From Floridaenema evergladense BLCC-F167 (GTDB lineage Bacteria > Cyanobacteriota > Cyanobacteriia > Cyanobacteriales > Aerosakkonemataceae): DNA of 64,000 nucleotides. The position numbers were made by a program, and so were the translations under genes. Below are positions 24,660 through 46,338 of the stretch, piece after piece. The notes below the pieces were generated by a model that worked only from the letters and a program-made list of their open reading frames with translations, had not been told where the DNA came from and did not search any database. The stretch lies in NCBI RefSeq assembly GCF_041929205.1, contig NZ_JBHFNT010000303.1. The stretch is one strand, 5' to 3'. How positions within the stretch are numbered: the stretch's first letter is position 1; each line of letters begins with the position of its first letter.

Positions 24660-25787
24660 TTATTGTGCTGACAGCTTCGATTCAATTTCATTTAACTTGG
24701 AAGCAAGAGCAACTTTCAGTGCTTCCAACTCTTGTTGTTCCATATTATCAAGTGCTATTTCTCGCACTTGCCGAATCATACCTGTAGCACGAGATGGCGT
24801 TTGTTCTTTCGCTTGTTCTTTTAGATAACTGCTAATTTCTGATGAAACTAATGCCCTAGTTTTAGCCACAGATAATTTTTCTTGTAAAATTCGCTTAACT
24901 AACTTGGCTCTAACTTTTTTAGCCTCTGCTTCCTTTATTCCTAACGCTTTGGCATTACAACGCTGCACGGCAATTGCCTGTATTCCCCCCAGTCCTTGAG
25001 TACGAATAGCTTGCTTTAAATCTGCTGCTAATCCCAGCATAGGAAAAATATTGGTATTAATGGAAGCTGGGTTTAATTGCAAAGATAGTAATACGCTAAG
25101 TACGCTCTTTTCTGATGAGTTGAGTTCTAATTCGGCTAAAACTTCTTGTTGTGACTCTGGGCTAACTACTACTATTTCACTAATTTGATTAGTTTTTCCC
25201 TGCCTTTCTAGCCGTCGGACTGCGGTTCTTAAAATGCGAGGAATATCTTGCTCGTTTAAATTACTTGTCTGAGCTATTTCTTTGATTAGCGCTTCTGCCA
25301 TATCTAGCGGATTTAAGTTTTCCCGATGCAAGTTGGCGAGGAGAACGCGACGGTGCAACGCTTCGGGACAAGGGATAATTACTGCTTTTATCGTACCCCA
25401 CTGCAATTGCAAAGCCGCACGCCAACGTCGTTCTCCATCAAATAGTAGATACCGTCCATCTGGTTGTTCTATGAGGATAATTGGTTCCTGCTGTCCATCG
25501 CTAGCTAGGGAAACCATCATCCCGTTAATGCTTTCCGGTGAAAATGTCTGTCTTGGTTGGTCTGGGTTAGGATCTATCTGCTCCACTGATATGTCTATTA
25601 CACCCCCTGATGTGAGAGTTGAACGCAATTCTTGCACTTTGGTTTCAACTTGTTGAGAGTCAACGGAACGCAATTGCTCTATTTCGGCTTGCAGTTCGGT
25701 TATTTTAGTTTCTAAGGCGTGGACTTCTTGAGAGTATTCCGCACCAGAGAACAGATTGGATAGGTCTATTTGTGGTTTTTTACTCAT
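24660..25787 (-). CDS. parB: ParB/Spo0J-family partition protein
   Basis: ParB N-domain with ...EPIILIEQPDGRYLLFDGERRWRAALQL.... Its start overlaps the parA stop (ATGA). Confidence 0.8.
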   Translation of the reverse strand: MSKKPQIDLSNLFSGAEYSQEVHALETKITELQAEIEQLRSVDSQQVETKVQELRSTLTSGGVIDISVEQIDPNPDQPRQTFSPESINGMMVSLASDGQQEPIILIEQPDGRYLLFDGERRWRAALQLQWGTIKAVIIPCPEALHRRVLLANLHRENLNPLDMAEALIKEIAQTSNLNEQDIPRILRTAVRRLERQGKTNQISEIVVVSPESQQEVLAELELNSSEKSVLSVLLSLQLNPASINTNIFPMLGLAADLKQAIRTQGLGGIQAIAVQRCNAKALGIKEAEAKKVRAKLVKRILQEKLSVAKTRALVSSEISSYLKEQAKEQTPSRATGMIRQVREIALDNMEQQELEALKVALASKLNEIESKLSAQ

Positions 25788-26667: not shown

Positions 26668-27255
26668 TTAACCAGGAGAAACTATTGCTTTTACCTGAGC
26701 GACAGAATTTTGTTGTAATGCACGAACAGCGAGATCCTCACAAGCAGCTACACTTAATTGGGAAATCGCCTGTTTAATTACCGGGATAGCTGGAGGATTA
26801 ACACTCAACTTATCGATTCCCAAACCTAACAAAATTGCTGTAGCGGCAGGCTCGGCAGCTAGTTCACCACATAAACTCACCCAGATTCCCGCCCGATGAG
26901 CAGCTTGAACTGTTTGCTGCACCATGAGTAACACAGCTGGGTGCATCGCATCAGCCAAAGCAGCTACTTGTGGGTGAGTGCGATCGCTAGCCATCACATA
27001 CTGACTCAAATCATTAGTCCCAATACAAAAAAAGTCTACCTCCGCTGCTAAGCGCGAGGCAAGCACCACTGCTGAAGGTACTTCGATCATAATTCCCAAA
27101 GAAATCGTTCCCGCAACCGGAATATTCGGTTGACGCAGTTCCGACTGCACTTCCGAAAGGATTCCTTTGGCAGCTTTAACTTCCTCTAGAGGGGCAATTC
27201 CCATACTACGCCCATTCATGTTCACTCGTCTGCACAAATCTGCTATTTGTGACAA
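26668..27255 (-). pseudogene. C-terminal fragment of a PEP-utilizing enzyme (PtsI-like TIM-barrel domain), N-terminally truncated
   Basis: GIMIEVPSAVVLASRLAAEVDFFCIGTNDLSQYVMASDR...CGELAAEPAATAILLGLGID matches the Enzyme I C-terminal domain (FFSIGTNDLTQY). At 195 aa it is far shorter than a full ~570-aa enzyme, and no upstream domains are present. Confidence 0.5.
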
Positions 27256-27268
27256 ATCATATCCTTGC

Positions 27269-28725
27269 TCAGATGCGGCACCACAAATTTTCTCTGCCAG
27301 TAGCTAATTGACCTTCAATTCTTGCCGCTTCTGCTTTTGCTCTCGCTGCTGCGGTAGCTTGACCTGTAGTTTCGATCGCAGAGTTTTCCGCTTGCAATTC
27401 TAACAGATTTCTCCGTTCCGCTTCGGCTGCACCTTTATCAACAATTGCCTGTCTTTCTAACCTAGATTTTGCTTCTTGTTCGATCCGTTCGGCATCATGT
27501 CTAGCAGCAGCTTCTTGGGCATCAGTAGTAATTTGAATCGCAATTTGTACCGACTTTTGCAAACTTTTCAAAGTTTCTTCATCTACTGGTTCTACTGATT
27601 GAATATCAACGTTAAAAATTACCAAATTATTGGTTCTAAAACGGAATTCTTCCCGCACTCGACCTTCGGTATCTGTACCAAATACAGCAGTACGAATAAT
27701 CCGAGCAGAATTGCGGTGAAACTCGTCAAATTTTACACTGGCTACTGCACCCCGAACGCGAGATGCGATCGCTTTACAAGCAGTATCTACAAAATCAGGT
27801 ACTTGGAAAAGTTTTGCCGCTGCTTGTTCATCATCTCGATTAACATCAAAATACCAATTATAAGACAAACGTAACTGAAGTCTGGCATGATCTGATGTTT
27901 CAACTGTGAACAAATCAGTCATAAAATCTGGGCCTAATAATAAGGCCAAAGACTTGATTATATGAGGTCTTTTTGGTACGCTACCGGATAAACTCAACAC
28001 CGTAAAAGCTTCATCTGGCCCCAGCATTACTAAGTCTGGGCCAAATACAGTTCTGGCGGTTCTTTCCTTATAATCATGTATTTGCACGGCGGCATTTTGG
28101 GGAACATGAAAAACCACAGCCCTTGTTTTATTTCGTTCGCTTCTTGTCTCAGATTTCGAGGGAATTTCTGATATTTGATTTTGCCGATCGCCACCTTTGT
28201 TAGTATGATGTCGCCCCCTTTCCGAAACCGGATCGTTTTTAATTGCTAATAGTTCTTCCACAATTGGTGGCAATTCTTTTTCCCACAGTTCTTCATAAGG
28301 ACTGAGCATATAAGCTTGCGGGCCACTAACAACTTTCACTTCACCTGTTTGAATATCTCTAATATAAATTCCTTCATTCTTATCCAGAGGAATTGCTTGA
28401 CGTTTTTCAACTACTTCTACTTGCACAGGAGGGATATAATCTCTTGGCCCTGCAATCATCCACATATCCCCTGGTTGACGTTGAATTAATATCGAGGTGG
28501 TACAATAATCATCGGTTCCGGTTTTAATATTAACCGTTCGTGATCGCGCAAAGTAATAGTTTGTGGGCCAACTTCCAGTCTAGTCACCCCTGTATTGTTA
28601 TCTAAAACGTGAATAAATTGCTGAGGTTTTAAGCGAATTATGCCGCTAGCAATTCCTGGTAATTCGGATTTATTTTCTGTAGTGCGATCGCTTATATTCA
28701 TAGCCATCTTTTCCAAGTAATTCAA
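27269..28725 (-). pseudogene. major vault protein (MVP)-like gene, fragmented and truncated
   Basis: Fragment 28486-28725 ([29 protein letters not shown]...IIVPPRY) resembles MVP repeat 1. A TAA stop and +1 frameshift follow. Fragment 27269-28465 aligns by recollection with MVP repeat 8, the shoulder and the start of the cap-helix ([22 protein letters not shown]..., [48 protein letters not shown]). Repeats 2-7 and the distal cap-helix/C-terminus are absent. Confidence 0.55.
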
Positions 28726-33327: not shown

Positions 33328-34548
33328 ATGCTGAAAAGTTTTAAGACAAAGCTAAACCTAAATAACCAGCAAAGAACATTAGCTTCTCAACACGCAGGGG
33401 TTTCTCGTCACGCTTGGAATTGGGGTTTAAATGTTTGTCTTACAGCAAAAGATGCTCAGGAAAAGCGACCAAGTGCTATTGACTTACATAAGCGATTAGT
33501 AGCAGAAGTTAAATCAGTTAATCCTTGGTATTATCAAGTTTCCAAATGCGCTCCTCAACAAGCGTTAAGATATTTAGATGAAGCATTTAAACGTTGTTTT
33601 AAAGTTCCGGGGACTCGTCAACCTAAGTTTAAAAAGAAAAATATTAAAGACAGTTTCTATCTAGAAGGAAATATTAAGATTTCTGGCAATCAGATCAAAA
33701 TCCCTAAGTTTGGCTGGGTTAAATGTTATGAAATCCTCCCAACAGTTCAACCTAAAAATGTCACCATTTCCAAAAAAGCAAATGATTGGTATATCAGCTT
33801 TAGATACGAGTTAGAGCCATCGCCAATTCGCCATACTAGAAAGCGGATCGGAGTTGACGTAGGAATTAATGCTCTGGCTACTTGTTCGGATGGTACAGTT
33901 TTTCCTAACCGGAAAGCTTATCGAAAGGCTAAAAGAAAGTTAGCTCATCTGCAACGGTCTTTCTGTCGTAAGCAACTCGGTTCAAAAAACCGCGCCAAAG
34001 CAAATCTAAAGGTAGCTAGATTGCATAGAAAAGTTGCTAACATCAGACAAGACGCATTGCACAAACTAACAACTTGGCTAGCTAAAAACCACAGCGAAAT
34101 TGTGATAGAGAATTTAAACGTCTCTGGAATGCTAAGAAATCATAGATTGGCTAGTGCTCTTGCTGATTGTGGATTCTATGAATTTAAAAGGCAACTTGAA
34201 TATAAAGCTAGTTGGTATGGTTCAACAGTAATTAGAGTTGACAGGTTTTACCCAAGCTCGCAACTTTGTAGTTGTTGTCATCATCGTCAAAAAATGCCAC
34301 TCTCAAAAAGAATTTTTAAGTGTGGCAATTGTGGGATGGAGTTAGATAGAGATTTGAATGCCAGTATTAATTTAGAAAATTGGCACGCCATTATTGAATT
34401 TCCAACAACCGTTAGCTCAACGGGGATTGCTTGTGGAGAGTTAAGTAAACTTAATGGTTCAACTGTTAAGGATTCGATGAAGCAAGAAGAAAACGTTAAA
34501 TTTACTTGGTTTGCAGCTTCGTTCTGTGACCAAAGTAAGTTTGAGTAA
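33328..34548 (+). CDS. tnpB: IS200/IS605-family accessory protein TnpB (OrfB, RuvC-like + zinc finger)
   Basis: 406 aa. Typical TnpB N-terminus ...NQQRTLASQHAGVSRHAWNWGL.... The RuvC-like core is IGVDVGINALATCSDG. The C-terminal zinc finger is CSCCHHRQKMPLSKRIFKCGNCGMELDRDLNASINL. No tnpA is adjacent. Confidence 0.85.
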   Translation: MLKSFKTKLNLNNQQRTLASQHAGVSRHAWNWGLNVCLTAKDAQEKRPSAIDLHKRLVAEVKSVNPWYYQVSKCAPQQALRYLDEAFKRCFKVPGTRQPKFKKKNIKDSFYLEGNIKISGNQIKIPKFGWVKCYEILPTVQPKNVTISKKANDWYISFRYELEPSPIRHTRKRIGVDVGINALATCSDGTVFPNRKAYRKAKRKLAHLQRSFCRKQLGSKNRAKANLKVARLHRKVANIRQDALHKLTTWLAKNHSEIVIENLNVSGMLRNHRLASALADCGFYEFKRQLEYKASWYGSTVIRVDRFYPSSQLCSCCHHRQKMPLSKRIFKCGNCGMELDRDLNASINLENWHAIIEFPTTVSSTGIACGELSKLNGSTVKDSMKQEENVKFTWFAASFCDQSKFE

Positions 34549-34568: not shown

Positions 34569-36185
34569 TCAGTGATTGTTTTCCAGTGCTTGGTTGAGGC
34601 GCTTTTGGGTTTGGGCAGTTATAGGTCGTTTGCCAGTTTCGATCATCGAAACCATAGATTTAGCCAGCCCTGCTAATTCAGCAAGTTTAGTAACGCTTAA
34701 TCCTTTCGCTATTCGGAGTTTTCTTACCTCTTCTCCAGTAAGTAGGGAACAATTTAAAAACTGCTGAGACTGAAGTTTAGTATTACTCTGCTGCTTACGC
34801 TTATGAGCTTCGTCAGTTAAAAGTTTTTTCTGGTTAGACTTCCTCTGCTTTGTAATCCCATTCAATCTCTGGACAATCTCTGCTGGAGAACGTACCCAGA
34901 GCCTACCACCTAGTAGCTGTTCAAAACCAGCGGGTGTACGTTTTGTAAAATCAGTCAAGCGTGTCCCTTCTTCCTCAGTCGCATCCAAAGCCCAAAAAGA
35001 TGCCGCTTCTTCAGGATCGTTGGGTATGCTTGTGAGCGGGCTGGGGTTCACTAATTCCGGCCAGTACTGAAGTGGATAAGTTTCCGAATCAGGTTGAATA
35101 CTCCATCCTTTCTCTAGTAAAACTCTCAGCGTAATTTCCCAACGTCTGACCAACTTTTTCCTTTCTTTTGAAGAAGTAATAGCATCTGTCACTAATTCTT
35201 CTCCAAAGGCAACTTTCATTAATGTTTCTACTATCAGCGGACTGCCTGGGTTGACTTTAGTTTTGAATAGCAGCCAGGTCATCAGTCGTGCTGCACCAGG
35301 ATGGTCATACCAAATGCTCATTAAATCGCGTAGCAATCCTTGAGACAAGATCCCGTACTCGTAATAGCCTGCTCTAGAGGCACGTTTTTCCTTATTAAGA
35401 AAGTATTGCGCCCAGTTTCCACATCGGATCTTGAGCGTAAATCCTACGAGCGTTTTCTCACCAATGGGGTTTCCTTGGCGATCGGAAAAACAATCTTGGT
35501 AGTGCAAAATAGGCTCAGCAATCTCCCAAAGGTAAGTGCGACTGACGCTGAACGCTCCAACCGCTCCTTTTTCCGGCCATGATGCGTACACCAGAAGATG
35601 ACAAGGTTGTTTCGCCAGTTCTAACAGCCATGTTAATTTTTGTTGCTTGTTTAGCTTTTTGTTATAGTTCAGACCCAAATATCGTTCCAACTGAACATTA
35701 CTTATAACAAATTGTTGCTCCCAAGGGCGATCGAGTTGTGTAGCATGGGCAGCATAGATCAAATGAAGACAGGCAGCTCGAATATCAAATTGCTCTATCA
35801 GGGCTAGAGCAGCTTCTCCCTCCAAGACAGCAGGAGGCTTTGTGTGCAAATCATCAGTTACCCAAAAAGATATATAGCCCTGACCTTTAGCAACAGGACT
35901 TTCGTAATAGGGTTGCCCTTGTTCAGCGTTAAGCCAACAAAGATTCTGACCTTGCGTCAGAATGTTACATCCTTCCCAAATTAATCTGTTCGATGCCATA
36001 AAATTGGTTTGACCATCGGGGAACAAATTGGGGCTAGTCGGTGGACGGGAAAAGGAACGGTAGCGTCCCCGACGTTGCGGTTGGCTGCTCCGCTCTTTTT
36101 GAGGAACTGCCTTACCAGCTATCTCTGGCTGCTCTGAGGTTCCTAATTGTGTATTGATATTAATTTTATTATTTGTTCCTGGCAT
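34569..36185 (-). CDS. large protein with C-terminal XRE/Cro-type HTH
   Basis: 538 aa. The C-terminus LTGEEVRKLRIAKGLSVTKLAELAGLAKSMVSMIETGKRPIT is a Cro/C1-type helix-turn-helix. The N-terminal ~450 aa are unassigned. Confidence 0.45.
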   Translation of the reverse strand: MPGTNNKININTQLGTSEQPEIAGKAVPQKERSSQPQRRGRYRSFSRPPTSPNLFPDGQTNFMASNRLIWEGCNILTQGQNLCWLNAEQGQPYYESPVAKGQGYISFWVTDDLHTKPPAVLEGEAALALIEQFDIRAACLHLIYAAHATQLDRPWEQQFVISNVQLERYLGLNYNKKLNKQQKLTWLLELAKQPCHLLVYASWPEKGAVGAFSVSRTYLWEIAEPILHYQDCFSDRQGNPIGEKTLVGFTLKIRCGNWAQYFLNKEKRASRAGYYEYGILSQGLLRDLMSIWYDHPGAARLMTWLLFKTKVNPGSPLIVETLMKVAFGEELVTDAITSSKERKKLVRRWEITLRVLLEKGWSIQPDSETYPLQYWPELVNPSPLTSIPNDPEEAASFWALDATEEEGTRLTDFTKRTPAGFEQLLGGRLWVRSPAEIVQRLNGITKQRKSNQKKLLTDEAHKRKQQSNTKLQSQQFLNCSLLTGEEVRKLRIAKGLSVTKLAELAGLAKSMVSMIETGKRPITAQTQKRLNQALENNH

Positions 36186-36259
36186 TAGTTGGGCTTTCCC
36201 CGAAATTGCTAAATGGTAAAGTGAGCTAAGGAAAGAATTAGTGAATTAATGCGGACTTC

Positions 36260-37372
36260 CTAAGCTGTTATTTCTTCAGAAAATTCAATAGCTGCTTTAG
36301 TTTCAACAGTTACGTTGTTTTGGGAAACTTCTGAAACCGAAACATCGATCCAATCTACAATTGTTGACACGGTATCGTTGTAGGAGTTAGCTGCACTGTG
36401 GGGAATAGGAGTAGTTTCAGCAAGAGTGGAACTGCTTGCCTTAAGTGCCGCTTCTAAAACTTTGGCTACCCAGTCCACCAAAACCAATCCTTCTCCTCTA
36501 GCAGCATCTTGTATCAGGGATTGCAAGTGTGCAGGAAGCTGTAAAGTTAAGGTAAAAGTTTCTGTTGATGGCAACGTTCTTTTGGCTTGCTCAGGGATTG
36601 CCTGTCGATTAGTCCAAAATTCGCATTCTGCTCCCCTTTCGTTGCCGTCCTTTTCAATAAAGTTCAATTTCCCTAACTGGTAGCAGTAAAAACTATGGGG
36701 GTCATCTAGGAACTCTCGGCTGCAATGGTAGCAGTTCCAACAGCTTCGTGAATCAGTTCCCGCTTGACTTTGTGGCTTTTTGGAGATGTTCTTGTTCTTA
36801 GAGTTAGAACCTGAACCTTTTTGCTGATATTCTTTGGCAATTTGGGCAACATGAGTGGATGTAACTCTACCTTTAGGAGCAGTAGAGACGGCTTTAGCCC
36901 AAGCTTCCTGTTGCTTTTCGGGAGGGAGCGTCACCAAAGGACGAGTTTGGCGCTCGTTGGCGGGAAGAATTTGTGCGCCATGGCGCACATTTTCATAGAC
37001 GGTAGCTGCTTCAATTAACTGGTAAGCAGAACGACGAGACATTTCCCAACGATTAATACAGTAATCATCAAAGGTTCCGTACTCTTGTCGATATAAACGC
37101 CGCTCTTGAATTCGTCCTAAAGCTTGTCCTATCTCCCAAAATGCTCTCAGACCCTGTTCAACTTTAGCCTCCAAGCTACTCAGTTCTATTAACTCAGCTT
37201 CTGTAAGTGTATTTCCTGTAAATAAATTTTCAGCATTAACTTCTTCTAGCTGGGAGTCCTGTACTGACCCAACAGGCGTAGTAGAATTAGCTAATGACTG
37301 TTTAGACGCATCAAGATGATCAACCGTGTCAGAAAATAGCATTGATATATGGGGCTTTGCATCATGCAACAA
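36260..37372 (-). CDS. hypothetical protein with probable DNA-binding N-domain and Cys-cluster
   Basis: 370 aa. The conserved-looking block LRAFWEIGQALGRIQERRLYRQEYGTFDDYCINRWEMSRRSAYQLIEAA resembles phage/plasmid antirepressor or ParB-like N-domains, but the match is vague. A CWNCYHC...FYCYQ Cys cluster is present. The 18-bp palindrome lies inside it. Confidence 0.35.
   Translation of the reverse strand: MLHDAKPHISMLFSDTVDHLDASKQSLANSTTPVGSVQDSQLEEVNAENLFTGNTLTEAELIELSSLEAKVEQGLRAFWEIGQALGRIQERRLYRQEYGTFDDYCINRWEMSRRSAYQLIEAATVYENVRHGAQILPANERQTRPLVTLPPEKQQEAWAKAVSTAPKGRVTSTHVAQIAKEYQQKGSGSNSKNKNISKKPQSQAGTDSRSCWNCYHCSREFLDDPHSFYCYQLGKLNFIEKDGNERGAECEFWTNRQAIPEQAKRTLPSTETFTLTLQLPAHLQSLIQDAARGEGLVLVDWVAKVLEAALKASSSTLAETTPIPHSAANSYNDTVSTIVDWIDVSVSEVSQNNVTVETKAAIEFSEEITA
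36972..36989. repeat. 18-bp palindrome TGTGCGCCATGGCGCACA (copy 3), inside CDS 36260-37372
   Basis: Exact match. It encodes ...VRHGA... in the minus-strand ORF. Confidence 0.8.
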
Positions 37373-37670
37373 CTAATATTGCAGCCTGCAAACTGAATGA
37401 CAAGGATTGCTTAAAGTTTCTTATTAATTCGCTCTTATAGCCAGCTTCACCGCTTTATCCAGCGATTACATGAGGTAGTGATGGAAGTGGAGAGGAAATA
37501 CTCTACTGGTATATGGGATAGTCAGTTGCCAAACCCTTGTAAATTCAAAAGTTTTCCTTTTAAATTAGATAGATAGGTAACGTCTATAATCTTTGGTCAG
37601 TCTTATCCCAGACATTCCTTATTATTAAGAGTGTGTAAAGGATAAAAGTAGTGATACAAAGATTGAAATA

Positions 37671-38135
37671 GTGTACAGCTATACTGCGAAGGTTAAATTT
37701 GTGACTGTTGGCTCTGTGTCTTCTCCTCTCCAAGAACGTCAAAAGCGGCTGACTCAACTAATCGAGCAACTGCTAGAAGAGAGTTGGACTCAAAGTAGTT
37801 TAGCCAATGCCGTTGGTGTAGATTTTTCAACAGTGCATCGGTGGTTAAGAGGCAAGACTATTCCTGATGTTGATTCTAAAAACTTTCGGCAATTGGCAAA
37901 GTTAAGTGGTGGCAATACAGTAACACTACAACTTTATTTAGATGGCGAAATTTCTTTATCAGAATACCGTAACGGTTTTGAGAAGGAAACAATAGCAGAA
38001 GTACGGGATATCAGTAAGAAATCAGCATCTGATGATATTAAAAGGGAAATATTAGCGAAAATTAAAGCACTAGAGCCAGCTGATATTTTGGATGTAATTT
38101 CCTCATCAGCAGCATTTTTAGCTAATCAGGTGTGA
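37671..38135 (+). CDS. small HTH (XRE-like) transcriptional regulator
   Basis: 154 aa. WTQSSLANAVGVDFSTVHRWLRGKTIP is a helix-turn-helix. Confidence 0.4.
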   Translation: MYSYTAKVKFVTVGSVSSPLQERQKRLTQLIEQLLEESWTQSSLANAVGVDFSTVHRWLRGKTIPDVDSKNFRQLAKLSGGNTVTLQLYLDGEISLSEYRNGFEKETIAEVRDISKKSASDDIKREILAKIKALEPADILDVISSSAAFLANQV

Positions 38136-38530
38136 AGCAAGATAATACTTAAAAAGTTATAGCAATTACTTAAGTCCGGCAAAAATAATTTAATTTTTAG
38201 TTCCTATGTTTTGACTAGAAATTTTTCATCTGGACTAAGAGAAATTTGTATCCTCATCGTCTTCTATCATTCAGTGATTGAGGTATATAAATATTTAAAA
38301 AACTCCAATTCTGGGGAATTAATTATTTAAAATCAACTGGTTGTTTCAGTGAGTTTTTAATAAAACTAATCGTTAAAATTGTAAGTTTATAAACTAGGAA
38401 ATAGCAGAAAGGTTCGGTGCGATTTGCCCCACCTACCTACTTAATATGTCGGTAAACCCTGTGCCTCACGCCTGTTGCAAACTGCTGTAGACTATGGACT
38501 ACTAACTACAATAAAACTGAGCACTAAATT

Positions 38531-39340
38531 ATGACTTTTGCCAAGAAAACTTATCTAATTACAGGTGCATCTGAAGGAATTGGCCGAGCACTAGCTATCA
38601 AATTAGCAGAAAAAGGTGCAAATTTAGTTTTAGCTGCACGCAATCAAGAAGCTTTGGATGAAACTGCTAATGCTTGCATTAATAGCGGCGGGAAAGCGAT
38701 CGCCATTCCCACCGATGTCACCAAACCAGAAGCTTGTCAAAATTTTCTAGAAAAATCGATGACAACTTTTGGCGCTATCGATGGATTGGTAAATAATGCC
38801 GGGATTTCCATGTTTGCCAAGGTTGAAGAAGTGACAGATGTTTCTATATTCGATCGCCTGATGCAAGTCAACTATTTGGGTGCAGTTTATTGCACTTATT
38901 ATGCACTTCCTTATCTCAAACAATCCAAAGGTTTGCTAGTAGCCATTTCATCCTTAACAGGAAAATATGGCATCCCCACTCGTTCCGGTTATGCAGCTAG
39001 CAAACACGCCATGCAAGGATTCTTCGACTCCCTGCGAATTGAGTTGCGCGGTACGGGCGTTGACGTTTTGGTAGTTTCTCCTGGTTTTGTCGCCACTGAG
39101 ATCAGACACAAGCTTTTAGGAACAGGTGGAAAGATAATCAAAGCTACTTTATCTAACGAACAGGAGAATATGATGTCTGTTTCCGAATGCGTTGAACAAA
39201 TTGTCAAAGCAATGGAAAAACGGCAACGAGAACTAATAATGACTGGCAGAGGTCGTTTTGGTTTGTGGCTAAAGTTAATTGCTCCCAACTTGTTGGATAG
39301 GATAGCGGAAACAGCGATTAGATCTCAAAAGCAAAGTTAA
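38531..39340 (+). CDS. SDR-family (short-chain dehydrogenase/reductase) oxidoreductase
   Basis: TGASEGIGRALA (TGxxxGIG), NNAG, and the catalytic YAASKHA (YxxxK). Typical ~270-aa length. Confidence 0.85.
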   Translation: MTFAKKTYLITGASEGIGRALAIKLAEKGANLVLAARNQEALDETANACINSGGKAIAIPTDVTKPEACQNFLEKSMTTFGAIDGLVNNAGISMFAKVEEVTDVSIFDRLMQVNYLGAVYCTYYALPYLKQSKGLLVAISSLTGKYGIPTRSGYAASKHAMQGFFDSLRIELRGTGVDVLVVSPGFVATEIRHKLLGTGGKIIKATLSNEQENMMSVSECVEQIVKAMEKRQRELIMTGRGRFGLWLKLIAPNLLDRIAETAIRSQKQS

Positions 39341-39498
39341 CATATCGTTGGATTGAAAATTACAGCAGCTTGCAAGCTGCGTGAGGTAGCTCCATAAAAT
39401 TTTGGCCATTGTTAAGTGTTTATCTTAGTTTTTTATTGATTTGAAAGTTTTTAATGTTTCTAATTTAAAAAACAAAAACTCTGATGCTTTTTCACAAT

Positions 39499-40026
39499 TC
39501 ATTTAAACTGACTGTAATGTACATCAAAAGGAATTGTTAGTCCAAAAACTTGTTCAATCTCATTACGAATAGCTTCGGCGTTACCCCACACAATATCGCT
39601 AGTAGTATGACTACGAGAAGACACTTCATTTTCAATAAGTTGGCAGTAATCATTACCATTGCGGGCAACAAAAAAGCCATAAGTGCGACAAGCAATAGGA
39701 CGTGCATCGTAAATCCGACAAGCACCCTCATTTTCATCAAGATAGGGACAGACAACCTGTGAGCTTACGGTATTTTCTGCTATCTGCACCAAAAGCTTAT
39801 CGATTTTCTGTTCGACTTCGATGCGGATGGGTTTCGGTAGTGCAACAACTGCTTCATCAATACGTGCCCATTCCTGTAAACTCAGTTCGGGAGGCTGTGC
39901 CAGCTGACGACAACATTGTGAGCAGCCCCGACGACACGGCCACCAGTCACGCGAACTACGAATGTCTTGCACCCGGACTTCTATGCGCTGTTCGAGATCA
40001 AGTAATTCTTGTTGTGCTTCCTTCAT
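39499..40026 (-). CDS. YkgJ-family Cys-cluster (CxxCxxCC) protein
   Basis: WWPCRRGCSQCCRQ (CxxxxCxxCC) plus downstream Cys residues VCPYLDENEGACRIYDARPIACRTY. This matches the putative zinc/iron-chelating PF03692-type family. Confidence 0.55.
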   Translation of the reverse strand: MKEAQQELLDLEQRIEVRVQDIRSSRDWWPCRRGCSQCCRQLAQPPELSLQEWARIDEAVVALPKPIRIEVEQKIDKLLVQIAENTVSSQVVCPYLDENEGACRIYDARPIACRTYGFFVARNGNDYCQLIENEVSSRSHTTSDIVWGNAEAIRNEIEQVFGLTIPFDVHYSQFK

Positions 40027-40192
40027 TAAACCTGTATTTTTCTACCAAATAAGTCTCAAACCTGCATTATTATTACCCAAATTAGCTGCCGAATAACAGG
40101 CTACTAACCATTACTGGGACAAATCTGTTCCCTTCCCTAGTGTAGGTAGTTCAGCTATTACTAGGAAATAATGGCTAGCGCCATTTGAAAAT

Positions 40193-40609
40193 ATGAGCCC
40201 GATTGATAAACCAAGCTTAATGAAAAACCAAGAAGATTCACTTCTAGAAAATGCTGAAAAAATAGAAAATCAAAACTTCAGCATTAGCTTTGAAAAAGTC
40301 GTTTTGATTATAGGAGTGCAAATCTTAGCTCAATCAGAAGATGAACTAGAACGGCGCGTTATTTTAAGTTCAGGTATTAAAGGAGAACCACCTCTTCTAT
40401 CTAGCTGTACACTAACTGAATTGCTTACTGGTATTCCTATCCAAGAAACTTTGCAGAGGCTAGAACAAAAATTACCGGAAATCATTGAAACAGCAAGAAA
40501 TAGGAAAAAAATCAAGCAAGAAGTACAAAGTATTTCAAACCACATCACTACTTCACAATCAATGTCAGAAAATTCGGTCGAAAGAAGTACTCAAATCAGC
40601 TTTTTCTAA
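40193..40609 (+). CDS. hypothetical protein, candidate beta-grasp/Ubl-like component
   Basis: 138 aa. A TAA stop, 1 nt, then the ATG of the next gene suggests translational coupling. The alternating beta/alpha pattern FSISFEKVVLIIGVQILAQSEDELERRVILSSGIKGEPPLL gives a weak Ubl resemblance. Confidence 0.25.
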   Translation: MSPIDKPSLMKNQEDSLLENAEKIENQNFSISFEKVVLIIGVQILAQSEDELERRVILSSGIKGEPPLLSSCTLTELLTGIPIQETLQRLEQKLPEIIETARNRKKIKQEVQSISNHITTSQSMSENSVERSTQISFF

Positions 40610-40610
40610 T

Positions 40611-41039
40611 ATGCAATACATCCTGAAACTAGAAGGTCAAGAGCTACCATTAACAGCCGAAGTAGCAGCAACAGACCAAACAATCATTGCAGCACTCGCA
40701 CCGTTTTTTCCAGAAGCTGCTAGCGCAGAAATCAAACGAGAGCAGAACGGCGAAACCACCATCATTCGTCTAGTCAAAAAAGCAGGCACTAAAGGGAATT
40801 ACCTAGAAAACATCATCAATGCTACCAATGAATTGAACCCATCTATTGCACTTTCATGGCAACTAAAACAAATAGAAATTCGAGGAGAATTAACCTTAGA
40901 GAGATTGCTAAAAATTCAGCCATTACTGGAAAATGCAATAAGTGAAGGTGAAACCTGGGAACTTGAAATAAGCAAAGTAATTTCCCGCTTAAAAACTTGT
41001 CAACCAATTGCTTCAAATCAACCCATCAAAGGATATTAA
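40611..41039 (+). CDS. hypothetical protein, candidate beta-grasp/Ubl-like component
   Basis: Start taken at MQYILKLEGQELPLTAEVAATDQTIIAALA. The ORF-track start at 40485 overlaps the previous gene. The C-terminus is ...NQPIKGY. Confidence 0.3.
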   Translation: MQYILKLEGQELPLTAEVAATDQTIIAALAPFFPEAASAEIKREQNGETTIIRLVKKAGTKGNYLENIINATNELNPSIALSWQLKQIEIRGELTLERLLKIQPLLENAISEGETWELEISKVISRLKTCQPIASNQPIKGY

Positions 41040-41073
41040 TTAAACCCCATCGCTCTGTGCAATTGCTCAATTC

Positions 41074-41805
41074 TTGAATCCAATGATGGGAAATCTTAAA
41101 CAATATCAACTGCCAGTAAAAGTAGGAGATTGCCTTGATTACTTACGTTCGCTCCAGCTGCAAACAATTTTACTAGAGCTTTACGGGCAACTTTTTCCCA
41201 TCCAATGGAGCAATTCTACTATCCCATTGTTCCAACAATCTCATCCCACAGTATACACAGACCGAGAAATCGAATTTTTGCAACTGCTTAATACTTGGTT
41301 TCCCATTGAATATTACGAAGAATTGGAAACAATTGAGGAAAGATATACAGAAATTTATCTGTATCCACAAAACATTAGTTGGTGGAATCAAACATTCGAG
41401 GAACTCAGTCAAGTAGAACAATTTATCATCAGTTTACTAGATTGGGGATACGAGCGGGAAAAATGGGAATCGGTTTTTGGTTTTAGCTCTACTTACACTG
41501 CTAAACCAGAAGAAATTAACTGGGAAAAGTTAGAACGATTATGCCAAACAAAAAAACCGCCATTACAATACTTCAGCAACGTAATTAGCATCATCGACCA
41601 TAGTTCAGACTGCATTTGGCTAGACCTGACTGATGAAAGTTATGAATCCTTGGCTTGGAGTAAAGAGAATATCATTTACCTAAAAAGCCAATGGGGAAAA
41701 GCACTTGAATTACAGCAGCAAATGGCAGAATTTTCAGTTTGGTTTGAAACGAAAGTCGAACACAAAAAAGCCGCCTTAAAACTGTGGAACCAATCTAAAA
41801 AATGA
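41074..41805 (+). CDS. acidic alpha-helical protein, candidate 6E-like component of the Ubl-conjugation operon
   Basis: 243 aa, Glu-rich helical (EIEFLQLL..EYYEELETIEERYTEIY..). It overlaps the E2-like gene start (ATGA), so it sits in an operon with the E2/JAB/E1 genes. Confidence 0.3.
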   Translation: MNPMMGNLKQYQLPVKVGDCLDYLRSLQLQTILLELYGQLFPIQWSNSTIPLFQQSHPTVYTDREIEFLQLLNTWFPIEYYEELETIEERYTEIYLYPQNISWWNQTFEELSQVEQFIISLLDWGYEREKWESVFGFSSTYTAKPEEINWEKLERLCQTKKPPLQYFSNVISIIDHSSDCIWLDLTDESYESLAWSKENIIYLKSQWGKALELQQQMAEFSVWFETKVEHKKAALKLWNQSKK

Positions 41806-42488
41806 ACGTACCATTACCACCTCTAAACATTGGAAAACTGGTGCAAACGATTGTTCCTCAAACCGAGTTGGGTGAAGTACAAGCCCAACTCTTATTTTTG
41901 TCGGGACAGTACGTTTTGATTTACAAAGAACAGGAAAAAACCCATTGTAAATTTGTATCACCAGCCGCAATAGCAAGAGCTTTTACCAATACAGTAATTG
42001 ATTCGGGTTGGCTTGATTGTCATACCGTCCGCTGGGGACATGGTTTATCTGGGGAATGGATAGTGCAGTACTACCCACCGCAGCAGTATCAAATTCTGTG
42101 TGAAAACAATGAATGGCGAATTCCCCTACCTGCCTTCGTATTTATAGGCTATCGGACTAGGTACTGGATTTGGGCATCGAAAACTAAACAGTTTGACCCG
42201 AATGCGGCTTTGTACGCCGCACCTCTACCTAATGTTTATGGTGATGGTGCAATTTGCTTTGGCGAACTGCATCCACCTGATTGTACGCCAAGCCAAATCG
42301 GAGTAGCCTGGAAAATATTTTGGCAGAGTAATTTCAGCAACCATCTAATTCAAGGTAAATCAAAGCACTACCCTCAAGACGTGCTTAAGCAATTAATGCA
42401 GGTGAAAAACAAACGAATTTATCCCAGCAAAGACTTAGTGATTTTCAACAAATCCCTCGACGTTATTTGCCAAGGCATTATCAGATGA
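41802..42488 (+). CDS. prokaryotic E2-like (UBC-fold) protein
   Basis: PLPNVYGDGAICFGELHPPD matches the E2 active-site signature HPN(I/V)...G.IC...L. The catalytic Cys is at nt 42255-42257. 228 aa. Confidence 0.55.
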   Translation: MNVPLPPLNIGKLVQTIVPQTELGEVQAQLLFLSGQYVLIYKEQEKTHCKFVSPAAIARAFTNTVIDSGWLDCHTVRWGHGLSGEWIVQYYPPQQYQILCENNEWRIPLPAFVFIGYRTRYWIWASKTKQFDPNAALYAAPLPNVYGDGAICFGELHPPDCTPSQIGVAWKIFWQSNFSNHLIQGKSKHYPQDVLKQLMQVKNKRIYPSKDLVIFNKSLDVICQGIIR

Positions 42489-43228
42489 AAATTCCTCAAT
42501 TTGTAGAGTATAAAACGGCTTTTGATGCAAGTTTACCACCAATAACTGCTAGCGCACTCGAATATTGGTTATCCAGAAATGGCGTATTTATTCGAGCACA
42601 GCGACAAGGATTAAAAGCTTGTTTCCCCATCGCTAACTGTCGCATTGCTTCCTTGGCAGTAATAGAACCTTATTTTCAGATGGAATACCCTCGCGTACCG
42701 TTGGAAATAACCAAATTGATGTGGTTACTTAGTGAGTCAGCAGGCGAAAATGAAATACTTTTTCACCTATCCTTTGAAACCGGAGGTTGGCATTTAGAAA
42801 TTCCCGCCCAAATTGCTACACCAACGAGCGTTACACCTTTAATCAGTTCGGTTAATTCATCTTATGAAACAGCATTGATTGAAGTGCATTCTCATGCCAA
42901 CATGAGTAGTGAATTTTCGGAAGCAGATAATCGAGAAGAAACTGGATTTAGAATTTTTGCCATTCTAGGTAAGCTGAGAAGCCAACCGGAAATTAATACT
43001 CGAAGTGACGTTCTCTCCCGCCCGAGCTTGCGCTATAACGGGAGCTTCTCACTTCAGAATAAAGATAGCTGTACGCCATCCCCACCTGAGAAAGCTTCAC
43101 ACTTCACAGGCTGGGTATCCCCTAAGCCTCTGTGTGCAGACAAGATGAGTCCCACCTCGTTTAATGCTCGTTCTAATATATTTCGAGCGGCGTTTTCATC
43201 TCTATCCATTGCTAGGCCGCACTTATGA
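42467..43228 (+). CDS. JAB/MPN+ (JAMM) metalloprotease-domain protein; C-terminus probably disrupted by IS
   Basis: JAMM motif ...WHLEIP...IEVHSHANMSSEFSEAD (E ... HxH-x7-S-xx-D) at nt ~42885-42925. The ORF then runs into the 3' end region of the minus-strand tnpB (from ~42980). Its distal part is therefore probably IS-derived read-through. Confidence 0.5.
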   Translation: MPRHYQMKIPQFVEYKTAFDASLPPITASALEYWLSRNGVFIRAQRQGLKACFPIANCRIASLAVIEPYFQMEYPRVPLEITKLMWLLSESAGENEILFHLSFETGGWHLEIPAQIATPTSVTPLISSVNSSYETALIEVHSHANMSSEFSEADNREETGFRIFAILGKLRSQPEINTRSDVLSRPSLRYNGSFSLQNKDSCTPSPPEKASHFTGWVSPKPLCADKMSPTSFNARSNIFRAAFSSLSIARPHL

Positions 43229-44343
43229 CATTCGTGCAGGCGAATAGATAGAGTTTTCGGTACTTTTGCGCCACAACTTGAGCAATTTTGAGATGTTCCA
43301 TGAGGACTTACTTTTACAATTCGGACACCGCATTTAACTGCCACTGCGTCCAAAATGGTAATGAACCTCCCCCATGCTGCATCCAAAATTGATTTGCTCA
43401 ATCTTGTTCGAGCAAGCCCTTTGATGTTTAGATCTTCTACCGCAATTAAGTCATACCTTTTGACTAAATTGTGAGCGGTGTTATAGTGAAAGTTTTCCCT
43501 AATCCGACCAATTCTCTGATGAATTCTGGCTATCTTATTTTTCTGCTTGTTAGAGCGATTCGACCCCTTTTTTGACCTTGCTAACTTACGTTGTTGACGA
43601 GCCAAATGAGACTGAGTTTTGCGGTAGATTTGTTGAATGGGAACTGTCTCACCTTCAGAAGTGGTAAGAAATTCCTTGAGTCCCACATCAATGCCAATAA
43701 CTGTTTTCACCTCATCCAATGGCTTATGTTCGGGTACAGTTTCATCCTCCATAGAAATACAGCAGTACCACCCATCAGCTTTGCGAACAATGGTGCAAGT
43801 TTTTAGGGTAAATCCATCAGGAAGAGGACGATGTAAGATGACTAGCATCTCTCCTATCTTTGACAGTTTCAACACACCATTGTTAAGATGCGCTCCTGCT
43901 TTTGGACAATTTATTCGTGGGTAAACGAATGACCGCAACTCATCAACTTTTTTAAATTTGGGTCTACCACCTCGCTTGCCTGATTTATCAGGAAATAACC
44001 AACGCTCGATCGCCTTATTCAATCTTTGCAAATTAACTTGCTGTGACTCTGACCAAATATTTTTGTACTCAGGAAACAACACTTTAGTTTGCTTTAGATC
44101 CGACTGCTGCGTGTAGTAATTAACAGTTGCAGGTATCTCTCCGATTGGCTCATAAATTATACTGCAACGGTCAATTTGACATCTGGTTCGTCGTAGCCAA
44201 TCTAACCTCTGCTCCAGACAATAATTCCAATGCCGTCGAAGCAACTCTAATGTATGGAGCATAGTTGCTTCTTGTTTGGCATTGGGTTTAATTCGGTAGC
44301 AGTAAGTTAGAATCATAGCTGTTATTTTACAGCTTATCGCCAA
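43054..44343 (-). CDS. tnpB: IS200/IS605-family TnpB (OrfB)
   Basis: 429 aa. RuvC-like IGIDVGLKEFLTTSEG. Zinc finger CSSCGAKVPKTLSIRLHECHKCGLAMDRDENAARNI. No tnpA is present. Confidence 0.85.
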   Translation of the reverse strand: MAISCKITAMILTYCYRIKPNAKQEATMLHTLELLRRHWNYCLEQRLDWLRRTRCQIDRCSIIYEPIGEIPATVNYYTQQSDLKQTKVLFPEYKNIWSESQQVNLQRLNKAIERWLFPDKSGKRGGRPKFKKVDELRSFVYPRINCPKAGAHLNNGVLKLSKIGEMLVILHRPLPDGFTLKTCTIVRKADGWYCCISMEDETVPEHKPLDEVKTVIGIDVGLKEFLTTSEGETVPIQQIYRKTQSHLARQQRKLARSKKGSNRSNKQKNKIARIHQRIGRIRENFHYNTAHNLVKRYDLIAVEDLNIKGLARTRLSKSILDAAWGRFITILDAVAVKCGVRIVKVSPHGTSQNCSSCGAKVPKTLSIRLHECHKCGLAMDRDENAARNILERALNEVGLILSAHRGLGDTQPVKCEAFSGGDGVQLSLF

Positions 44344-44422
44344 TCATGACAATAATATACGATAAAGGATTCAGGTCTGTTTACTAGTCTACCGAAAACC
44401 TGTCTTCTGGACTGGCTCTACG

Positions 44423-45091
44423 TTGGTAGACCCGGATATTATTGAGGCGAAGAACATTCCCAGACAGAACTTTATTGAAAGTGAAATTGGCAGTAATAAA
44501 GCCTTAGTTCTAGCCACTAGATACAACCTAGCATTAGGCAGCAATTTAACTGCTATTCCCAAACCTTTTCATCAAGATTTATTAGATAGTTGGTGGACGG
44601 GTTTAACAATAATTATTGGTTGTGTGGATAATGCAGCAGCCCGTTACCAAATAAGTCAATGTCTGGAATTGAATCAAAATAAAGAACCGGATATTTGGTA
44701 TTTGGATTGTGGGAATCATGCCAATTCAAATTCGGGACAAGTGTTACTTGGTTCCACCAATCAATTTCAACTAAAAAATGCTTTCGATAACCCAGAAAAA
44801 CCCAGTTTTTGTATTAACTTACCTTCGCCTACTTTGCAGCATCCTGAATTACTAGAAGCGCTACCTGAAGAACTGAGTAATACCTCGCTTTCTTGTGCAG
44901 AAATTGCATTGCGTAACCAACAAGCATTATTTGTAAATCAACAAGTAGCTGCTATAGCCACAGAGTACGTAAAATCTCTTGTATTAACAGGAGGATTGAG
45001 AAGGTTTGCTACTTACTTTAATAGTGATATTGGTTCAATGCGATCGCGCTACATTTGTTCCCAAAATATAACACAATATAACACAACATGA
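44423..45091 (+). CDS. E1-like (ThiF/MoeB/UBA-fold) protein, N-terminal Rossmann GxGxxG segment missing (probably IS-disrupted)
   Basis: (TGSTL)VDPDIIEAKNIPRQNF matches the E1 ...G.L.LVD.D.VE.SNL.RQ motif. IIIGCVDNAAARYQI matches the E1 DN...R motif (nt ~44623-44650). The reading frame is open from 44366. The nucleotide-binding GxGxxG that should precede it is absent. LSCAEI is a candidate catalytic Cys. Confidence 0.5.
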   Translation: MVDPDIIEAKNIPRQNFIESEIGSNKALVLATRYNLALGSNLTAIPKPFHQDLLDSWWTGLTIIIGCVDNAAARYQISQCLELNQNKEPDIWYLDCGNHANSNSGQVLLGSTNQFQLKNAFDNPEKPSFCINLPSPTLQHPELLEALPEELSNTSLSCAEIALRNQQALFVNQQVAAIATEYVKSLVLTGGLRRFATYFNSDIGSMRSRYICSQNITQYNTT

Positions 45092-46338
45092 ACCAACTTT
45101 TCCACCTGGACACTGCTATCGGGAATCCAAATCAGTTACTCAAACTTCTAGAGTCAGAAAATCCAGCTTTAGAAGTAAGAGAAGTAATAGCAGTTTTTGG
45201 AGCATCTCTTAGCCAACCAAAGTTATCTAAATTGCATCAGTTTCAATTGGGAGATATTGTAACCCAAGGACAACATTATGGAGTAGTAACTGCATTAAAT
45301 GAAACAGACCGACCCATAACAATTACTTGGGATGGAAATAATGATTCTGAACCTGATGTATTTGCTTACACGCTGGACGAAATTCGGTTTTTGGGAATTG
45401 CAATTATTCCTCAATTAGTCCCACTGAAAACAATTGTAGAACTACCAGCAAACATAACTATTCAGATAGCGAATGCTAAATTCGTCAAGTTCCATCAAGC
45501 GAATACTTTCTTAGTTGAAGAAGTTAACGAACACCATTTGATTATCTGCTCTCTTGAAGAACGATATCACTTTCCTAAACAACTGTTTCCGGGAAAGTTT
45601 TTTGCTTGTATTGTAGATATTCCCATCTCGGCTCAAGTACCTAGCAATTTATCTTTAATAGCCTTAAAAACTAAAGTTAAATTGCATTTAGCAATGGCTA
45701 ATGCTGTTAACGATAATTTGGAATGCTTAACGGCAATGAAGAAACAACAATTATTTGAGGAGTTGGTTTCGCAATTAGCAGGTGAACATTATGATACTGA
45801 GGAACTAAACGAAGTTTGGTCGGCAGTATGGGCAGAACAAATTGCTAGTTTAGCTAAGGAACAAGGCTTGTACAACTTTAAACTAGGTGAGCGGGTTTTC
45901 AGACAACGAGAAGGATTAGAAATTTGGGGAACTATTGTGAGGTTAAACATTGAATTAACCCGACCTTTTCAAATTGAGTGGGAGCAGGGAGAAGTGCAGA
46001 ATTATAGCGTGATTGAATTAAAATGTTTAGGGATTACTCCCCTCAAACCTGTTATCAAATTATCGCCTAATGTTGCTTACCAAATTAGCGAAGACGGTCG
46101 TTACTTTAAAGCTTGGATTGGCTTTCGTACCAAAGGGTTAGCGAAAGCTTGGTGGCGGATAATTAAAAAGCAAGTGGGATACCTCAGTTATTGGCGAGAA
46201 TGTTTTAGTGCTGAATTGAAACATACAGATAAGCGTTATGAATGCGTTGTAGAAAAGTTTCGTCAAAAAACTGTGGCTAAACGATTGTCAGCTTTGCAAA
46301 GATTAGCAGAAATTAACTTGGAAGAAATGCCGCGATGA
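45088..46338 (+). CDS. hypothetical protein with two SH3/KOW-like internal repeats
   Basis: 416 aa. It overlaps the E1-like stop (ATGA). The repeats FQLGDIVTQGQHYGVVTAL...ITITWDGNN...YTLDEIRFLGIA and FKLGERVFRQREGLEIWGTIVRL...FQIEWEQGE...SVIELKCLGIT align convincingly. Confidence 0.4.
   Translation: MNQLFHLDTAIGNPNQLLKLLESENPALEVREVIAVFGASLSQPKLSKLHQFQLGDIVTQGQHYGVVTALNETDRPITITWDGNNDSEPDVFAYTLDEIRFLGIAIIPQLVPLKTIVELPANITIQIANAKFVKFHQANTFLVEEVNEHHLIICSLEERYHFPKQLFPGKFFACIVDIPISAQVPSNLSLIALKTKVKLHLAMANAVNDNLECLTAMKKQQLFEELVSQLAGEHYDTEELNEVWSAVWAEQIASLAKEQGLYNFKLGERVFRQREGLEIWGTIVRLNIELTRPFQIEWEQGEVQNYSVIELKCLGITPLKPVIKLSPNVAYQISEDGRYFKAWIGFRTKGLAKAWWRIIKKQVGYLSYWRECFSAELKHTDKRYECVVEKFRQKTVAKRLSALQRLAEINLEEMPR

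Follow-up and report, generated by a model that had tools for sequence, protein, structure and literature searches.

The window analysed here, a stretch of 64,000 nucleotides from contig NZ_JBHFNT010000303.1 of the cyanobacterium Floridaenema evergladense BLCC-F167 (assembly GCF_041929205.1), carries at positions 40193-46338 what is, in all likelihood, a dead allele of a seven-gene operon for the conjugation of a ubiquitin-like protein (Ubl) on a cyanobacterial conjugative plasmid. The gene order on the plus strand is ORF1, ORF2, ORF3, E2, JAB, E1 and ORF416 (ORF, open reading frame), and the remains of an insertion sequence (IS) stand between the recognisable parts of JAB and E1. The features of the region are the following.

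40193-40609, plus strand: ORF1, 138 amino acids (aa), the first gene of the cassette, with a variable acidic N-terminus, a conserved core GIKGEPP...LP...NQLxLF and an isoelectric point (pI) of 5.0.
40611-41039, plus strand: ORF2, 142 aa, Ubl-like over residues 1-62 (40611-40796), which end in KKAGTKG, followed by a helical domain of ~80 aa that ends in PIxG[FY].
41083-41805, plus strand: ORF3, 240 aa, acidic (pI 4.7) and Trp-rich, directly upstream of E2.
41802-42488, plus strand: E2-like conjugating enzyme, 228 aa, intact and identical in sequence to a Floridanema evergladense BLCC-F167 protein, with the motif PLPNVYGDGAICFGEL and the putative catalytic Cys152 at 42255-42257.
42485-43004, plus strand: JAB/JAMM peptidase, truncated to codons 1-173 of 201, with the catalytic residues E, HSH, S and D kept.
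43005-43135, minus strand: right end (RE) of the IS and probable omega-RNA scaffold, ending in ...GGGAGAGAACGTCAC at 43005.
43054-44316, minus strand: tnpB, 420 aa, an intact ORF with the motifs GIDVG, AVEDL, DRDENAA and CxxC...CxxC in its translation.
44346-44419, plus strand: two tnpA remnants, the first (MTIIYDKGFRSVY, then a stop) at 44346-44387 and the second (VYRKPVFWTGS) at 44387-44419.
44420-45091, plus strand: fragment of a ThiF-type E1 that covers codons 56-277 of an intact E1 and continues the reading frame of the second tnpA remnant.
45088-46338, plus strand: ORF416, 416 aa, with a start that overlaps the stop codon of E1; it closes the operon in the sub-lineage of the window.

Profile searches uphold the first-pass annotation of this locus, which was made from the letters alone, in its claim of a Ubl-transfer-type operon with an E1, an E2 and a JAB. 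The E2 matches the Pfam family Prok-E2_D (PF14460) at E=4.8e-35 (121 bits; cutoff 25), and a structure search with it returned mostly ubiquitin-conjugating (UBC) enzymes, both of which support a UBC-like fold; the active-site motif lies where the annotation had placed its cysteine. Cys152, within PLPNV...G.IC.G, is invariant in 45 homologues, as are P141 and N144. The JAB matches Pfam Prok-JAB at 1.3e-4 (22.3 bits, just below the cutoff of 25), and the JAMM motif E...HSH-x7-S-xx-D that had been read from its translation is present at about 42887-42928; residues E90, H135, S136, H137, S145 and D148 are invariant in an alignment with PRTRC_A of Polaromonas. The E1 matches Pfam ThiF at 2.2e-11, from model position 49 onward. 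A PDB sequence search with E2 and JAB found no relatives.

The nature of the lesion emerges from a comparison of the window with eight relatives at 92-97% nucleotide identity (L041, L045 and L047-L052) and a ninth, L043, at 75-81%. In all nine, JAB (199-201 aa) and E1 (277-278 aa) are distinct genes, set 119-146 bp apart by a spacer, and intact sister operons are found in Phormidium ambiguum, Phormidium sp. LEGE 05292 and several metagenome contigs. The homology of all nine relatives to the window ends at 43004 and resumes at 44419, and in the interval they have 366-398 bp (370-395 bp in the intact sister operons) that are absent from the window, namely the last 27 codons of JAB, the spacer and codons 1-55 of E1 (MIDLTY...GTGGTGG). 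Alignment with intact homologues identifies the lost end of the JAB protein as IGIYSHFYSIPARWVFELPEMLVEKVPT, and the JAB frame now runs on into IS sequence, as had been noted, to a stop at 43228. The E1 frame begins at TLVDPDIIEAKNIPRQ (44420/44423) and contains VDNAAARYQ; it is without GxGxxG, the nucleotide-binding loop GTGGTGG of the intact relatives being missing. That the E1 lacks this segment, a point already made in the annotation, is thus borne out by the translation, by the profile matches and by tblastn, which found the missing N-terminus in no other part of the 64-kb window. An artefact of start-codon choice can therefore be dismissed as the cause of the truncation, and the loop has been lost from the E1 of the window and not from that of the family. 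Removal of the N-terminus to another place by an IS-mediated rearrangement was also considered and dropped, as tblastn found nothing and the window holds no second copy of the IS. An independent Logan assembly (SRR30638121, L003) is identical to the window over 36128-44452, a range that spans both IS junctions. Since the window E1 is without its ATP-binding loop, activation of a Ubl is impossible; with the JAB also short of a conserved C-terminal segment, the Ubl system cannot work in the window.

The IS shares with the IS200/IS605 family a full-length TnpB, a hairpin RE and insertion 3' of CCAA without target duplication, and differs in that the window copy is joined to host DNA on one side through a deletion and not through a transposition junction. 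Its TnpB matches NCBIfam guided_TnpB at 4.6e-81 (model positions 3-389 of 389) and the Pfam domains HTH_OrfB_IS605, OrfB_IS605 and Cas12f1-like_TNB, and is 77-93% identical to 31 copies from other cyanobacteria. The RE boundary is sharp and identical in 19 other copies. The RE region holds conserved hairpins with compensatory changes and, by analogy with what is known of TnpB, is a probable omega-RNA; an Rfam scan of 42800-44600 gave chance matches only and no omega-RNA family. By the same analogy, the 20 nt adjoining the RE (43004-42985, TTCGAGTATTAATTTCCGGT on the IS strand) would be the predicted guide. Intact copies of the IS encode a 136-aa IS200-type (Y1) TnpA, divergent from tnpB, and have an 89-bp left end that begins CT[TA]AATGTCGGCAGGGG directly after CCAA, this CCAA being present immediately ahead of the left end in all of them. 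The TnpA of the window, by comparison, is reduced to 13 + 11 codons: ~258 bp are deleted between the two tnpA remnants (by BLAST, window 44419-44386 lies about 250 bp from 44394 in intact IS copies), neither the final 25 codons of tnpA nor the 89-bp left end remain, and the second remnant reads in frame into E1 at TLVDPD. Because the left end and most of tnpA have been lost, the IS cannot transpose, and it is best described from its sequence as an immobile remnant in which tnpB and RE are intact. A megablast search of the IS against PLSDB gave no match, and an exact-protein look-up found no record for a 429-aa version of the TnpB or for ORF416. Elsewhere in the window, a second tnpB (33328-34548, plus strand, 406 aa) has the full Pfam TnpB domain set and no blastn match to the 43005-44419 element.

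The nine IS-free alleles read, on the IS strand, [G/A]CCAA followed by TTCGAGTATT..., and the boundary between the two (TTCGAG comes directly after it) coincides exactly with the RE junction, from which it follows that the original event was a normal IS200/IS605 insertion in about codon 180 of JAB. A complete element of ~1.84 kb, with left end, tnpA, tnpB and RE, inserted beside this CCAA, after which ~258 bp would have been lost within tnpA, and a deletion of ~540 bp, with one end inside tnpA, would have taken away the left end, the final 27 codons of JAB, the spacer and codons 1-55 of E1. The E1-side junction is a deletion scar, covering ~167 bp of the IS and ~370 bp of the operon, with 1-2 nt of microhomology. 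Given that the IS lost its left end and most of tnpA, at least two deletions must have followed the insertion. On the plus strand a TTGG, which is CCAA on the IS strand, lies at 44420-44426, 3 nt from the E1-side junction, where the window has G at 44422 and all relatives have T. It was considered as a second insertion site and judged a coincidence, because the homology to the relatives continues past it.

Two other histories of the locus have to be weighed against insertion followed by deletion. The first-pass annotation had pictured a fresh inactivation by transposition, in which a TnpB-type IS came to sit exactly between JAB and E1 or split a JAB-E1 fusion, so that excision of the IS would restore the operon. 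The IS does lie between the recognisable parts of the two genes, the remaining ORFs of the cassette are free of stops and frameshifts and have low ratios of nonsynonymous to synonymous substitution rates (dN/dS), and type 6e operons do have JAB-E1 fusions. However, the IS is not between two intact genes, since parts of both JAB and E1 are missing; all nine relatives have separate genes with a spacer and not a fusion; and where the IS meets E1 the break falls within tnpA and not at an IS terminus. Because the 366-398 bp of operon DNA are missing, excision of the IS in silico, which had been proposed as a way to recover the E1 motifs in frame, cannot restore E1. What stands of this picture is the recency of the event, whereas a simple insertion is scarcely credible, the IS itself being degraded and having been followed by later deletions. 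The second alternative is that JAB and E1 each received a copy of the IS, similarly oriented, and that the two copies recombined and thereby removed the DNA between them. This is a classical route to IS-flanked deletions, many related IS copies are present in these genomes, and the CCAA close to the E1-side junction could be taken as the second target. But such recombination would have left a complete IS with its left end abutting E1, whereas the left end and 25 tnpA codons are absent; the junction is inside tnpA, so that an additional deletion would still be required; and the window still aligns with its relatives for 3 nt beyond the CCAA, which leaves no base of a left end. We regard this route as decidedly improbable, and prefer a single insertion in JAB followed by deletions.

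The inactivation appears to be recent. Between the window and its close relatives, dN/dS is 0.1-0.34 for every gene of the cassette, including the E1 fragment, and similar to that of the flanking ORF416 and ORF230, which suggests that the cassette was under constraint for most of the divergence and was inactivated recently. The window is not the only broken copy. In L041 (Logan SRR36387038_585246, 92-95% identical to the window at the nucleotide level), a different, tnpB-only IS (11449-12893; window equivalent ~42057) is cleanly inserted in codon 85 of E2, and its excision in silico restores the 228-aa E2; going by these sequences, it is L041 and not the window that fits the fresh, restorable insertion imagined in the annotation. 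L046 (ENA ERZ27276650 k141_595346) carries an IS630/DDE_3 element in about codon 75 of E2, L045 (Floridanema aerugineum JBHFNQ010000214.1) has lost 4.4 kb comprising ORF1, ORF2 and the first 80 codons of ORF3, and the cassette of Chroococcidiopsis CCNUC1 is without JAB and E1. The intact operons of Phormidium ambiguum, LEGE 05292 and a number of metagenome contigs overturned the idea that all close relatives are broken. The relatives thus form a set of natural knock-outs, each in a different cassette gene.

As to its family, the operon appears from its domains and gene order to be a cyanobacterial 6d or PRTRC-like cassette of the Prok-E2_D group, and not 6E, Bil or Bub. Iyer et al. (2006) described type 6d as an operon that combines a Ubl with E1-like and E2-like proteins, a JAB extended by an additional N-terminal domain and a helical protein that diverges rapidly, and its members include Anabaena PCC 7120 and A. 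variabilis (PMC1779556). A tblastn search with the window E2 reached the plasmids of Anabaena PCC 7120 and A. variabilis, together with 40 other cyanobacterial plasmid records, mostly conjugative. We use the label 6d because neither of two related descriptions fits: type 6e carries JAB-E1 fusions (PMC1779556), and type 6C (CEHH), since renamed type II Bil, has a multidomain E1, BilD, with an N-terminal Pfam14459 'Prok-E2_C' domain (PMC10557695). PF14459 was unmatched in the Pfam scan of the window, and PADLOC had no model matching E2 or JAB. Resemblance to type 6d lies in the 121-bit match to Prok-E2_D, in JAB and E1 being separate genes, and in the presence upstream of a small candidate Ubl that has a conserved glycine and of an acidic helical protein. 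The JAB-N domain of type 6d has a strictly conserved Arg and Trp (PMC1779556); the N-terminal domain of the window JAB is ~85 residues long and W102 is invariant, whereas no Arg in it is invariant once the Polaromonas protein is included. The window lineage further departs from type 6d in that the Ubl is fused to the ~80-aa helical domain and a 416-aa gene is coupled to E1; in cyanobacterial members the His downstream of the catalytic Cys is not invariant, and the window copy itself is inactivated.

The PRTRC cassettes (TIGR03734-03742), found on plasmids and integrative and conjugative elements of Proteobacteria and Bacteroidetes, have in Polaromonas the order (F)-B-A-ThiF that is also seen here, and IMG and UniRef call some cyanobacterial homologues 'PRTRC system protein B'. 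The NCBIfam matches of the three enzyme genes are limited to this family: PRTRC_B for E2 (62.5 bits; curated cutoff 131.45), PRTRC_A for JAB (2.2e-7, 30.6 bits; curated cutoff 101.8) and PRTRC_ThiF for E1 (1.1e-30 from model position 51, with 106.7 bits for the fragment; curated cutoff 144.75). In contrast, the window proteins are only 18-30% identical to proteobacterial members, ORF1 is unmatched to protein E, ORF3 is unlike protein F, and a ParB of the PRTRC type is missing. In one preprint PRTRC is spelt out as a 'pilus retraction' system, at odds with the ParB-related, ThiF-related naming of the cassette. With the anti-phage BilABCD systems, type I of which is related to 6e (Chambers et al. 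2023, preprint PMC10557695; Hör et al., preprint 10.1101/2023.09.04.556158), the operon shares the logic of Ubl, E1, E2 and JAMM deubiquitinase; it differs in having an E2 of family D, in the single 277-aa ThiF adenylation domain that makes up the E1 of intact relatives, and in the absence of a JAB-E1 fusion.

The candidate substrate of these enzymes is ORF2, whose gene starts one base from the ORF1 stop. In plasmids of Oscillatoria and Pseudanabaena two neighbouring genes encode the Ubl and helical halves separately, with GSKG-VK or GTKG-TT at the end of the Ubl; a Ubl encoded by a gene of its own is 65-70 aa long. Whether the halves are fused or separate, G[TS]KG is conserved at the boundary between them. 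PRTRC_C (TIGR03738) matches the N-terminal halves of ORF2 homologues weakly (E=0.019 and 0.11), and the match reaches the last model position. An AlphaFold2 model of ORF2, with a predicted local distance difference test (pLDDT) score of 62, has a strand-strand-helix-strand-strand arrangement, followed by a disordered linker over KKAGTKGN and after it by helices. The modelled topology is compatible with a beta-grasp fold, and these observations weakly suggest that ORF2 is a Ubl carrier. ORF2 also matches, at 1.1e-26, the PADLOC model 'C3a152, Type III-C specific'. A function in CRISPR was considered on this account and dropped, because the match is accounted for by the position of the cassette in relatives: in plasmids of Anabaena cylindrica and Sphaerospermopsis it directly adjoins type III CRISPR genes (Csx11, RAMP, Cmr1), and the model has probably captured a neighbouring gene and not a CRISPR component.

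We infer from the domain content that the intact operon runs a Ubl-conjugation cascade. The JAMM peptidase would cut ORF2 after the conserved GTKG and free a Ubl of ~62 aa with a C-terminal glycine, a step suggested by analogy with the Bil deubiquitinase, which trims a C-terminal extension of its Ubl to expose the glycine (PMC10557695). The ThiF-type E1 would then adenylate this glycine, the Ubl would pass to Cys152 of the E2 as a thioester and would be attached to lysines of a target, and the JAB could also reverse the attachment.

What such a cascade serves has to be judged from the company that it keeps. The window is part of a conjugative plasmid, with type IV secretion genes, ParA/ParB, a DUF3854 protein, DnaN, DnaX, HolA and helicases. 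In relatives, replication genes stand on one side of the cassette and often defence systems on the other, among them type III CRISPR, CD-NTase + SAVED, AbiE, pPIWI-RE and SIR2; in L041 (1675-9419) and L042 (1743-9367) a pPIWI-RE module (X, Y, Z, REase) is directly upstream of the cassette, where the window has SDR and CxxCxxCC genes. We tentatively favour a role in conflicts between mobile elements, for example defence against phages or rival elements, as a real possibility short of being probable. The alternative that the cassette works for its own plasmid, and controls replication, establishment or partition through the tagging of host or plasmid proteins, we consider rather unlikely. It would accord with the near restriction of the cassette to plasmids, mostly conjugative, with its conserved position between prim-pol and the DnaN/DnaX/helicase genes, and with the definition of proteobacterial PRTRC, in TIGRFAM naming, by linkage to a ParB homologue. 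Yet no PRTRC-type ParB stands beside the window cassette, and five plasmids or contigs with independently broken cassettes persist (the window, L041, L045, L046 and L037), so the cassette is not essential for maintenance. The first-pass annotation had gone further in the direction of defence, with a 6E/Bub/Bil-type anti-phage system that tags phage structural proteins. The part set of Ubl, E1, E2 and JAB is identical, known defence systems adjoin the cassette in relatives, and Iyer et al. proposed defence or addiction roles; nevertheless, the E2 is of family D and not a Bil E2, the intact E1 is a separate, single 277-aa adenylation domain with neither a Prok-E2_C-type N-terminal domain nor a fusion to JAB, PADLOC did not match E2 or JAB, the literature search found no phage-defence reports for 6d, and the cassette is tied equally to the plasmid replication genes prim-pol, DnaN, DnaX and helicase. 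A Bil- or Bub-type system is hence improbable here.

Several points weigh against our reading of the locus as a dead 6d operon. The Ubl call for ORF2 is weak: its model has the pLDDT of 62 given above, a Foldseek search with the model found nothing significant, and the PRTRC_C matches have E of 0.02-0.1. The matches to PRTRC_A, PRTRC_ThiF and PRTRC_B all fall below the cutoffs curated by NCBI (TIGR03735, TIGR03736 and TIGR03737), and searches with BLASTP, hhalign and NCBIfam yielded neither a PRTRC-type ParB nor a recognisable protein E or F; the sole ParB of the window (24660-25787) is an ordinary partition protein beside ParA, about 15 kb away. The neighbourhood is ambiguous, with replication genes to one side of the cassette and defence systems to the opposite side, and the order and mechanism of the deletions are unprovable from a single end state. 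The cascade is drawn from homology: no solved 6d/PRTRC structure was detectable by sequence, and a literature search on PRTRC, Prok-E2_D and related terms returned annotation mentions only, with no experimental study of the 6d type.

Intact operons of the window's sub-lineage consist of ORF1, ORF2 (142 aa), ORF3 (240 aa), E2 (228 aa), JAB (201 aa), E1 (277 aa) and ORF416 (416 aa), and in Nostocales plasmids the order is prim-pol, a gene of ~155 aa, one of ~144 aa, one of ~248 aa, E2, JAB and ThiF. Homologues of ORF1 occupy the same position in every cyanobacterial cassette examined, and ORF1 is without match in Pfam, NCBIfam and PADLOC. ORF3 has 25 residues that are invariant across cyanobacterial cassettes and takes the place of PRTRC protein F, or of the 'novel alpha-helical protein' of Iyer et al.; similarity to the Polaromonas PRTRC_F was undetectable by BLASTP or hhalign. 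For these upstream genes the annotation was right about the near-coupling of ORF1 and ORF2, the ...KGY end of ORF2 and the acidic 240-aa protein. ORF416 sits 4-7 bp after E1 in every close relative and is absent downstream of E1 in more distant cassettes. It matches no family in Pfam, NCBIfam or PADLOC, is under purifying selection (dN/dS 0.24-0.26), and showed no internal repeat in a BLASTP self-comparison, contrary to its description as repeat-containing. A megablast search of the upstream region against PLSDB gave only distant matches, at ~75% identity.

Two other genes of the window, both on the minus strand, deserve mention. One (27269-28465) encodes a 398-aa protein that matches MVP_shoulder at 1.1e-53, Vault_3 at 4e-30 and Vault_4 at 4e-18. 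Vault-protein repeats are best known in eukaryotes, and the gene is unusual on a cyanobacterial plasmid. The other (26668-27255, 195 aa), by ParA/ParB, covers only the C-terminal third of PtsI/PEP-utilising enzymes (TIGR01417 positions 392-564, 1.5e-53) and is fragment-like.

The locus warns that in-silico excision of an IS does not always recover the ancestral gene. As a dead copy it is of low direct value, and as an operon it is a new dead member of an already known family; it is the comparison with relatives that assigns this family correctly. The 6d/PRTRC-like cassettes appear to be a family of E1, E2, JAB and Ubl that is common on plasmids, with 354 PLSDB records for E1 and 42 for the window E2. 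Some cyanobacteria produce the Ubl as a fusion that should need processing by the JAB, a testable prediction, and intact operons are present in the culturable strains Phormidium ambiguum IAM M-71 (contig MRCE01000032) and Nostoc PCC 7120 (pCC7120beta).

The stranded TnpB may add a further twist. The predicted guide TTCGAGTATTAATTTCCGGT matches the uninterrupted JAB allele at 20/20 positions in L047, L049-L052 and L041, directly after CCAA. Such a match to the uninterrupted allele is what TnpB biology leads one to expect of any insertion. There is a small chance, which we would not put higher, that this TnpB may cut, and thereby eliminate or convert, sister plasmids that carry the intact Ubl operon. 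If so, the loss-of-function allele would become self-favouring and, taken together with the three other independent knock-outs in close relatives, the 6d system could be costly and repeatedly selected against in these hosts.

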